From Escherichia coli (GTDB lineage Bacteria; Pseudomonadota; Gammaproteobacteria; Enterobacterales; Enterobacteriaceae): a stretch of 64,000 nt of DNA. Positions 36,001-39,000 of this stretch are shown here, piece by piece. Position numbers: made by a program. Position 1 is the first letter of the stretch, and every line of letters begins with the position of its first letter. Where the stretch lies: the NCBI RefSeq assembly GCF_050920415.1, contig NZ_CP169309.1; one strand, given 5' to 3'.

Positions 36001-39000
36001 TACAGATTAATCCTGGTTATTTGCTTTATTTATCACCAGTCATCCGGTATAGTTCTTCATAATCTCTGCAAAATCATCATGTTGTAATATTCTCTCATCA
36101 CTCTCCATCAAATTTTCTTTTTTTCTCCATAATTGGCGCAAAAGTGTTTTTTACACTTTCATTGTTTTACCGTTGCTCTGATTAATTGACGCTAAAGTCA
36201 GTAAAGTTAATCTCGTCAACACGGCACGCTACTTAAGAAAGCCGTAATAAATAACTGAAAGGAAGGATATAGAATATGCGTAAATTAACTGCACTGTTTG
36301 TTGCCTCTACCCTGGCTCTTGGCGCGGCTAACCTGGCCCATGCCGCAGACACCACTACCTCAGCACCGGCTGACGCGAAGCCGATGATGCACCACAAAGG
36401 CAAGTTCGGTCCGCATCAGGACATGATGTTCAAAGACCTGAACCTGACCGACGCGCAGAAACAGCAGATCCGCGAAATCATGAAAGGCCAGCGTGACCAG
36501 ATGAAACGTCCGCCGCTGGAAGAACGCCGCGCAATGCATGACATCATTGCCAGCGATACCTTCGATAAAGCAAAAGCTGAAGCACAGATCGCAAAAATGG
36601 AAGAACAGCGCAAAGCTAACATGCTGGCGCACATGGAAACCCAGAACAAGATTTACAACATCCTGACGCCGGAACAGAAAAAGCAATTTAATGCTAATTT
36701 TGAGAAGCGTCTGACAGAACGTCCAGCGGCAAAAGGTAAAATGCCTGCAACTGCTGAATAATCTTTCAGCCAAAAACTTAAGACCGCCGGTCTTGTCCAC
36801 TACCTTGCAGTAATGCGGTGGACAGGGTCGGCGGTTTTCTTTTTTGTTCTCAAACAGATGCAAAAAAAAACTGATCGCCACTAACGTAAATCACCCGAGT
36901 TGCCGATAACCATCCACGGTTACCTGAACGATAACAATGAAAAGAACGGGCCGGGAGCGAGTATGGAATACTTTGATATACGTAAAATGTCGGTGAATCT
37001 GTGGCGAAACGCTGCCGGTGAAACCCGCGAAATCTGTACTTTTCCACCGGCAAAACGTGATTTTTACTGGCGAGCCAGCATTGCATCCATCGCGGCGAAT
37101 GGGGAGTTTTCTTTGTTTCCAGGTATGGAAAGGATAGTGACGTTGCTGGAAGGCGGCGAGATGTTCCTTGAAAGTGCAGACCGCTTTAAACATACCTTAA
37201 AACCGTTACAGCCTTTTGCCTTTGCGGCGGACCAGGTGGTTAAAGCGAAACTGACGGCAGGGCAGATGTCGATGGATTTCAACATCATGACACGCTTGGA
37301 TGTCTGTAAGGCGAAAGTCAGAATTGCCGAACGTACGTTTACTACCTTTGGCTCACGCGGCGGGGTAGTGTTTGTCATTAACGGGGCGTGGCAATTGGGC
37401 GATAAACTGCTCACTACTGACCAGGGAGCGTGCTGGTATGATGGCAAACACACCCTGCGGCTTTTACAACCGCAAGGTAAACTGTTATTCAGTGAAATCA
37501 ACTGGCTCGCTGGTCATTCGCCGGATCAAGTTCAGTAATTTCATAGTTACCGGAAAGCAGCGGCTTACAAAGAATTTTATAACCGTCGTGATCAAACCCG
37601 GCGGGTGTCCGAATTAACATTGTCGCTTCTTCCAGCGAATTAACCGCCCCCAGCCACAGCCAGTTTTGAATAATATGATATTGAGTCATTTCCGGGTGCT
37701 GTTCTTTCAGTGCCACCGCACCTTGCCAAGGCCAACACACCACCCGCAAACGCGCCAGAGCCTGGCGCAAGCGTAGCGCATGATCGTCATGGCTCTCTTT
37801 ACCGCAACACGCCCCGGCGCAACGTTTTAATGCAGAACGAAAACATGCACGCCCGCGGCTTAACGGTTCCAGTCCCAACAGGCCATAACAAAGTTTTTGT
37901 TCATCAGCGATGGTCTGCAATGCTTGTAAAGCTGCGCGCCTATTGGCAAACAGGCCAAACAGGTTGGGGGCTCGTGAAAAATCCACCTCTTTGGCATACA
38001 CCACATCAACACGCTTTTCATTCAGCTGCAGGGCGCAGAGCTGGCGATTGCGGCGCAAGCGTTTATTAAATAGCGGCTGCTGCTCTTTGATTAATCGCGC
38101 TTCAAGGAGTAGAGCGCCGATTTCACCGGCGGTACATATCCAGCTGATGCGTCGGGATTGCCGCAGCATGGCGGCTTCATCCGGGGTACGTAAATGAGAA
38201 AGGACGCGGCTGCGGATGTTAATGCTTTTGCCGATATAGAGCGGCATGGTGTCACTTTCGCCATGAAACAGATACACCCCTGGTCGGGTGGGTAAGTCAT
38301 TAAGGAATGAACGTAAATGTTCGGGATATTCATAAATTGCCGCAGCTTCAAATTCGAGCCGCGGAGAAGTTAAACGCCGTACCACTGTTGACTCCGAATG
38401 CTGGTTATCTATCCAGTGTAACAGGCGGGGAGCGATTAAAAAAGAGGCGGGTTGATGACAAAGGTTACACCGTCAGACGTGCTACGCCTGTCAGGCCTAT
38501 TCGACTCATGCAATATATTGAATTTGCATAGTTTTGTGGGGCGAATAAGGCGTTCACGCCGCATCCGGCGTGAACAAAGTACTCTTTTTCGCACAAACCA
38601 ATATGTGCAAATTATTACTTCTTCCAGAAATCATCGAAAACGGTAATTGGCGGACGGCGTTTATGTTCGGTTTTCAGATACCAGTTCTCTATTGTTCTGG
38701 CGACCTGTTCAGGTACGTTTTTCCCTTCCAGATAGTCGTCGATATTGTCATAGGTCACGCCGAGTGCCACTTCATCTGGCAGAGAAGGGCGATCATCTTC
38801 CAGATCGGCCGTTGGGGCTTTCTTATAAAGATGTTCCGGACAACCTAATGCCGCCAGTAACTGTTTACCCTGACGTTTGTTGAGGCGATACAGCGGATTA
38901 ATGTCCGTACCGCCGTCACCATATTTAGTGAAGAATCCGGTAATGGCTTCTGCTGCATGATCGGTGCCCACCACGACACCGCTGGTCATACCCGCAATGC

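Follow-up and report, generated by a model that had tools for sequence, protein, structure and literature searches.

Convergent ves/cho and ynjH/nudG genes of Escherichia coli form ordinary tail-to-tail coding overlaps with one-way antisense transcription

Two convergent gene pairs, ves/cho and ynjH/nudG, share coding sequence at their 3' ends in the 64,000-nucleotide stretch of Escherichia coli chromosomal DNA that we analysed (contig NZ_CP169309.1, hereafter the window). Both are ordinary tail-to-tail overlaps and were already known, as they appear in the reference annotation, belong to a described class of overlapping genes and stand in a published list of excludons. Very probably, the overlaps were generated by drift of stop codons, and the antisense RNA observed over cho and nudG is read-through from the stronger partner in each pair that has little regulatory effect.

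In the PGAP annotation, ves (191 aa, HutD family) occupies 36963..37538 on the + strand and cho (295 aa, excinuclease Cho, with a GTG start) occupies 37498..38385 on the − strand. The ORF listing and the raw sequence placed the ves stop codon, TAA, at 37536-37538 on the + strand and the cho stop codon, TGA, at the complement of 37498-37500 on the − strand, and the coding overlap is 41 bp long (37498..37538). In the second pair, ynjH (20478..20750, + strand; 90 aa, DUF1496) and nudG (20716..21123, − strand; 135 aa, Nudix CTP/5-hydroxy-CTP pyrophosphohydrolase) overlap by 35 bp at 20716..20750. Codon position 1 faces position 1, 2 faces 3 and 3 faces 2 in both overlaps, which corresponds to phase (123:132). 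The overlap coordinates given in the original prediction agreed to the base with the ORF listing, the PGAP annotation and the K-12 genome. The RefSeq/PGAP ends of all four coding sequences in NZ_CP169399.1 (strain MFDS1022581, 100% identical) were the same as those in the window, and the same ends are annotated in K-12 MG1655 for cho (b1741, 1823515-1824402), ves (b1742, 1824362-1824937), nudG (b1759, 1841490-1841897) and ynjH (b1760, 1841863-1842135). Re-annotation of one partner to an earlier stop had been named as a route by which the overlaps might be refuted, but this is impossible for a 3' end because it is fixed by the first in-frame stop codon.

All four genes are genuine protein-coding genes, with family support and with orthologues whose reading frames are conserved across Enterobacteriaceae. 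Cho matched the NCBIfam equivalog NF007833 (8e-174), where the alignment covered residues 1-287 only and left the last 8 residues outside the profile; a Pfam search gave no match for Cho, and NCBIfam supplied the family instead. Ves matched NCBIfam NF008488 (4e-128) with the Pfam HutD domain spanning residues 9-175, and NudG matched NCBIfam NF007834 with the Pfam NUDIX domain spanning residues 4-125, the last 10 residues being outside the domain. In YnjH, Pfam DUF1496 spans residues 33-89 of 90 and extends up to the C-terminus. Among 5426 complete genomes of E. coli, both overlap regions had matches in more than 5400, and identity was 95-99% in nearly all.

Lillo and Krakauer (2007) counted 58 convergent overlapping pairs in E. 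coli K-12, and Huvet and Stumpf (2014) assigned 75 of the 663 overlapping adjacent pairs in E. coli K-12 to the convergent class. From these published counts of 58-75, 0.8-1.0 convergent overlaps are expected per 64 kb and the probability of two or more is 0.19-0.28; the two overlaps in the window represent no excess over chance. The nine convergent junctions of the window have gaps of 92, 83, −35, 8, −41, 46, 3, 40 and 52 bp, and with gaps this small tight packing is the local norm. Phase (123:132) is the commonest (46%) among E. coli convergent overlaps and is the one predicted by a stop-codon-mutation model (Lillo and Krakauer, 2007). Both overlaps are also shorter than 60 bp, the length from which convergent overlaps become suspect.

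We surveyed the cho/ves junction in one genome per species at 80 loci with a Cho relative, with both frames extended to the stop codon. The extremes of the junction were an overlap of 73 bp and a gap of 48 bp, and all three phases were present. The 41-bp overlap was found at 18 loci, comprising Escherichia and most Citrobacter loci. Overlaps of 23 bp were found in Enterobacter and Lelliottia, of 32 bp in Leclercia and Silvania, of 4, 7 or 15 bp in Kosakonia, Phytobacter and Superficieibacter, and of 10 bp in Franconibacter helveticus. Overlaps of 45 and 73 bp were isolated cases, and gaps of 3, 28, 46 and 48 bp were found in a few genera. Tight convergent packing was detected at 54 of the 80 species loci (51 with an overlap and 3 separated by 3-28 bp). 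At three loci ves was located ~1.7 kb off, and it was missing from the cho locus in Salmonella, Klebsiella and Raoultella; in Salmonella arizonae, cho faces spy across 74 bp.

The conserved core of Cho ends with ...DGYKILCKPLLSGxYEIxEL at around residue 286 of 295, and that of Ves ends with ...LLFSEITWLPGH at residue 185 of 191. In most genera the Ves stop codon (TGA or TAA) directly follows the final GH of this core. Escherichia and Citrobacter have a serine codon (TCN) at this position and six additional codons (SPDQVQ), and a 9-nt indel goes with the change. By parsimony, Ves is likely to have gained these six codons when an ancestral stop after ...PGH turned into serine. Within the 41-bp group, the variable tail of Cho (NDQRAS, NGLQAS, NAPASS and others) lies opposite the conserved WLxGH of Ves, and the Ves extension lies opposite the conserved EIxEL of Cho. 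With variable tails placed opposite conserved cores in this manner, each tail amounts to the constrained end of its partner read in antisense.

For the other pair, NudG homologues and their gene context were compared in E. fergusonii, E. albertii, Citrobacter portucalensis, Salmonella enterica, Superficieibacter and Trabulsiella. The nudG/ynjH overlap is 41 bp long in each of these six taxa, with NudG ending in ...RPADS(C/Y)*. E. coli nudG has TAG where the six other taxa have TCG, so that its NudG ends two residues earlier and the overlap shrinks to 35 bp. Read on the ynjH strand, this nudG change of TCG to TAG is a change of ACG to ACT, which is silent for threonine. Parsimony again suggests the direction, with E. 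coli NudG as the lineage that lost two codons. The C-terminus of YnjH (STNPLVWRRVKP) is nearly invariant and lies within DUF1496, and the variation in the NudG tail (e.g. RAARP, RGARP and RDARL) falls at third codon positions of ynjH. The invariant YnjH end facing a varying NudG tail therefore attributes the constancy of the overlap to constraint on YnjH and not to the overlap itself. These comparisons of aligned gene ends point to stop codon movement, rather than gene mis-prediction, as the process that produced the overlaps.

A terminator consensus scan, the totals of which matched the shuffled expectation, identified no terminator-like site at either junction, and an Rfam search identified no RNA family at either junction. 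The + strand fold at the ves/cho junction was unremarkable (z = −1.2). On the − strand, an 11-bp hairpin with a fold z of −2.8 was found at 37452..37478, inside the ves coding sequence and 20-46 nt downstream of the cho stop, with a tail of UGUGUUUG in the window and UGUGCCUG in K-12 and a weak U tract. We considered this hairpin as a conserved cho terminator and rejected it: the terminator scan made no call on it, its full stem is present in Escherichia only, the U tract is poor in K-12, and a published RNA duplex (described below) maps beyond it. Nor was there excess covariation across 55 species, where 69.6% of the cells were paired against 68.6 ± 0.7% after shuffling. In Pseudescherichia and its relatives, the cho/ves spacer contains a strong GC-rich palindrome of about −24 to −31 kcal/mol.

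Upstream of cho, 16-31 nt from its start, a CTG-N10-CAG palindrome (ctggatagataaccag) was read from the sequence at 38401..38416 on the − strand, and it is presumably the LexA box reported for ydjQ/cho (Fernandez de Henestrosa et al., 2000). Together with an early Rho-dependent end, this presumed LexA box gives cho further controls of its own. The Term-seq data of Adams et al. (2021) give no 3' end at either junction, and they place Rho-dependent ends early in cho at K-12 positions 1823539 and 1823784, which map to positions 38361 and 38116 of the window. On the other side of ves, the spy intrinsic terminator (36788..36850, + strand) carries a strong Rho-independent Term-seq end at K-12 position 1825060 (window ~36850), with the 3' end 123 nt upstream of ves, and it insulates ves from the strongly inducible spy. 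In the compendium of Tjaden (2023), neither ves-spy nor nadE-cho is scored as co-transcribed, and spy read-through is therefore an unlikely source of antisense RNA over cho.

Published transcript data cover both pairs. Among 370 convergent operon junctions, Conway et al. (2014) reported 276 with complementary 3' ends, which overlapped by an average of 286 nt. Transcripts with overlapping 3' ends are thus the norm in E. coli, and the coding overlap contributes little beyond this. The ExcludonFinder study (Sanmartin et al., 2025, NAR) lists cho-ves, nudG-ynjH and the neighbouring ynjE-ynjF in its Table 1 among 165 convergent excludons, which were defined by RNA-seq coverage and present in half or more of the MG1655 samples. 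Entry into such a list is near automatic for these pairs once both genes are expressed, because their coding sequences overlap. The tested example in that study was relBE-ydfV, and its authors found that excludon pairs as a class show higher synteny and more exclusive single-cell expression.

Total RNA-seq values for all four genes are available in Table S1c of Huang et al. (2020) as single-sample RPM obtained in conditions that are non-inducing for cho (induced by SOS) and for ves (reportedly induced by cold, at 25 °C). Sense/antisense RPM in the wild type and in the RNase III null mutants rnc-14 and rnc-38, in this order, were 7.9/19.2, 6.4/22.0 and 5.7/34.6 for cho, and 156.7/4.7, 173.0/1.8 and 244.7/8.6 for ves. 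The corresponding values were 9.0/45.4, 3.8/29.2 and 5.6/17.0 for nudG, and 80.0/2.7, 79.0/0.9 and 27.4/2.5 for ynjH. Per kilobase, the antisense RNA over cho amounted to ~8% of ves sense RNA, and that over nudG to ~38% of ynjH sense RNA. Table S3 of the same study reports perfectly paired 21-22-nt RNase III products in cho and ves, and contains no nudG or ynjH duplex among the matches listed. We mapped these published duplexes to the window: one, cut from paired sense and antisense RNA, lies inside cho (37705..37725, 167-187 nt past the ves stop), and two lie inside ves (37376..37396, 102-122 nt past the cho stop, and 37088..37109, 389-410 nt past it). All are outside the overlap, and complementary RNAs therefore exist far beyond the 41 bp.

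The original prediction had claimed that the transcripts of each pair must overlap in antisense, making the junctions potential sites of mutual interference. The first part holds: as the coding sequences overlap, any full-length mRNAs of a pair share a complementary stretch of no less than 41 or 35 nt. Mutual interference, in contrast, was unsupported: antisense RNA was one-directional, running from ves into cho and from ynjH into nudG with little over ves and ynjH, and the sense RNA of cho and nudG did not rise in rnc-14 or rnc-38 in the single-sample RPM values. The lack of a rise in the RNase III mutants argues against duplex cleavage as a determinant of cho and nudG sense RNA. In the published data, antisense exceeded sense over cho and nudG. 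Under the sampled conditions, the relationship within each pair is one-way and not mutual.

The explanation that we favour, and hold to be very likely, combines these observations as follows. The partners converge directly, lacking both a spacer and an intrinsic terminator, and their stop codons would drift such that C-terminal tails extend a few codons into the facing gene. The overlapping bases would not be jointly optimised, each tail being no more than the chance product of reading the conserved end of the partner in antisense. Transcription of the stronger partner (ves or ynjH) would continue as antisense across the weaker one (cho or nudG), because no terminator separates the genes. Part of this antisense RNA would pair with the sense mRNA and then be cut by RNase III. 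The antisense RNA over cho and nudG most likely originates from such read-through rather than from separate or internal promoters, probably ends by Rho-dependent termination and appears to have little regulatory effect. Some observations weigh against this explanation. The tight cho/ves packing at 54 of the 80 loci and the constant 41-bp nudG/ynjH overlap in six taxa may result from selection for the arrangement instead of inheritance and YnjH constraint. The higher synteny and exclusive single-cell expression reported by the ExcludonFinder authors apply to excludon pairs as a class. Furthermore, the RPM values are from single samples in non-inducing conditions, and an effect may be conditional on SOS for cho or on cold for ves.

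Among the alternatives, an artefact of annotation or sequencing, in which one partner would not be a true gene or a false extension would stem from a frameshift, takes its plausibility from the many convergent overlaps of more than 60 bp that are 3'-extension artefacts. Both overlaps here are below 60 bp, more than 5400 of 5426 complete genomes of E. coli contain matches to both regions, and all four genes have family support and reading frames conserved across genera. With the genome matches, the RefSeq and K-12 annotation, the NCBIfam families and the cross-genus frames, this explanation is effectively refuted. It is also very improbable that the shared 41 and 35 bp are under selection for dual coding, i.e. 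that they encode C-terminal residues which both proteins need and were kept for function or genome compaction. In favour of such selection, the tails of Ves (SPDxVQ) and NudG (RAARPADS) show fair similarity within their own clades, but this similarity coincides exactly with the region that encodes the conserved core of the partner. The genes are moreover retained in other genera with shorter or different tails, the family profiles of Cho, Ves (Pfam HutD) and NudG (Pfam NUDIX) do not extend into the tails, and a substitution silent in ynjH removed two residues from E. coli NudG.

We regard a functional role in one direction as unlikely. Here the antisense read-through of ves would be a selected brake on cho, and that of ynjH on nudG, in the form of a one-way excludon acting through colliding RNA polymerases or through cutting of the duplex by RNase III; such a brake would couple the amount of the SOS nuclease Cho to ves-inducing conditions. 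The excess of antisense over sense reads on cho and nudG, the RNase III-type duplexes within cho and ves, the presence of both pairs on the ExcludonFinder list and the wide conservation of close convergent packing are all in line with it. However, the sense RNA of cho and nudG was not higher in rnc-14 or rnc-38, coverage-based listing is near automatic for overlapping coding sequences, and a literature search found no experiment on either the cho/ves or the nudG/ynjH pair. The junction also varies freely in length and phase and contains a hairpin spacer between the genes in some genera, Salmonella and Klebsiella manage without ves beside cho, and cho is already controlled through its early Rho-dependent 3' end and, presumably, by LexA. 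In its stronger form, where ves read-through is a conserved and condition-dependent antisense brake on the SOS-inducible Cho, with ynjH acting likewise on nudG, and where the spacer-free packing found in most ves-bearing Enterobacteriaceae was itself selected for this coupling instead of being a neutral by-product, we consider the idea quite improbable, and its positive support is no greater than that for hundreds of convergent junctions.

The two pairs resemble the K-12 convergent pairs catalogued by Lillo and Krakauer (2007) and Huvet and Stumpf (2014) in their length of less than 50 bp, their phase (123:132) and an origin by stop-codon displacement. There is no difference in kind, both pairs being annotated in K-12, and what is added here is an account of which stop-codon changes took place and of the placement of each tail over the conserved core of the partner. 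They also resemble the MG1655 convergent excludons of Sanmartin et al. (2025), where cho-ves and nudG-ynjH are named, but the defining trait of an excludon is the exclusion of one partner's expression by that of the other, whereas here antisense transcription is one-way with no RNase III effect on sense levels. As in the convergent operons of Conway et al. (2014), where transcripts that terminate poorly or not at all continue in antisense into the gene opposite, RNA overlap occurs at the junction; unlike those overlaps, a minimum RNA overlap is obligatory here owing to the coding overlap and does not depend on leaky termination. Finally, bidirectional intrinsic terminators occupy the same place, the meeting point of convergent genes, and a few relatives (Pseudescherichia and Enterobacter sp. 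ENT03) contain a GC-rich palindrome in a 28-48-bp cho/ves spacer. In E. coli, by contrast, both junctions lack such an element, and the sole nearby hairpin is inside ves.

The significance of these overlaps is small, and the useful outcome is a negative one in that they can be closed as ordinary. Interest in them would rise only if ves transcription were shown to affect the amount of Cho in the SOS response. As they stand, the two pairs illustrate how silent changes in one gene set the length of the facing tail, as in the ACG to ACT change of ynjH that is the TCG to TAG change of nudG.

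Pseudescherichia vulneris, like a few relatives (loci L056, L057, L067 and L049 of the one-genome-per-species scan), has a spacer of 28–48 bp between cho and ves (4877..4922 in the coordinates of L056). This spacer contains a strong GC-rich palindrome, at roughly −24 to −31 kcal/mol for L056 and L057 and weaker for L049. The palindrome may act as a bidirectional terminator, or it may be a repeat element that was inserted there. In Salmonella enterica subsp. arizonae (L008, 4882..4957), ves is missing from the locus, and cho and spy face each other directly, 74 bp apart.

Elsewhere in the window, two further pairs of facing genes almost touch in the annotation, ynjF/ynjE (21830/21839, an 8-bp gap) and ydjO/tcyP (49368/49372, a 3-bp gap), with spacers too short for a terminator. 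The published MG1655 list of convergent overlapping transcription units (ExcludonFinder; Sanmartin et al. 2025) also includes ynjE-ynjF. Unlike K-12, the window lacks ynjI (region 18815..18899), because of which topB and gdhA are convergent across 83 bp, and two TVP38/DedA-family genes lie adjacent without the intervening ydjY (27098..28510). On the minus strand (56695..58593), the annotation also shows an intact type III effector gene of the ShET2/EspL2 family, whereas the counterpart position in K-12 is occupied by the pseudogene arpB.

Between nadE and cho, an Rfam match to the sRNA ES036 (CssrF) was found on the minus strand (38493..38535), barely exceeding the threshold (38.9 versus 37.6 bits), and a REP-like palindrome, gccggatgcggcgtgaacgcc, adjoins this match downstream of nadE.

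On the cho-sense strand, an RNA-seq compendium (Tjaden 2023) reports a short assembled transcript that lies opposite the ves 5′ end, in antisense orientation, at K-12 1824929..1824984 (+), corresponding to about 36916..36971 in the window; it may derive from distant read-through of cho or from a promoter of its own. Within the cho ORF itself, published Term-seq and bicyclomycin data (Adams et al. 2021) map Rho-dependent 3′ ends to two points of the reading frame, 24 nt and some 270 nt from its start (38361 and 38116, minus strand), which suggests that cho transcripts terminate prematurely under non-SOS conditions.
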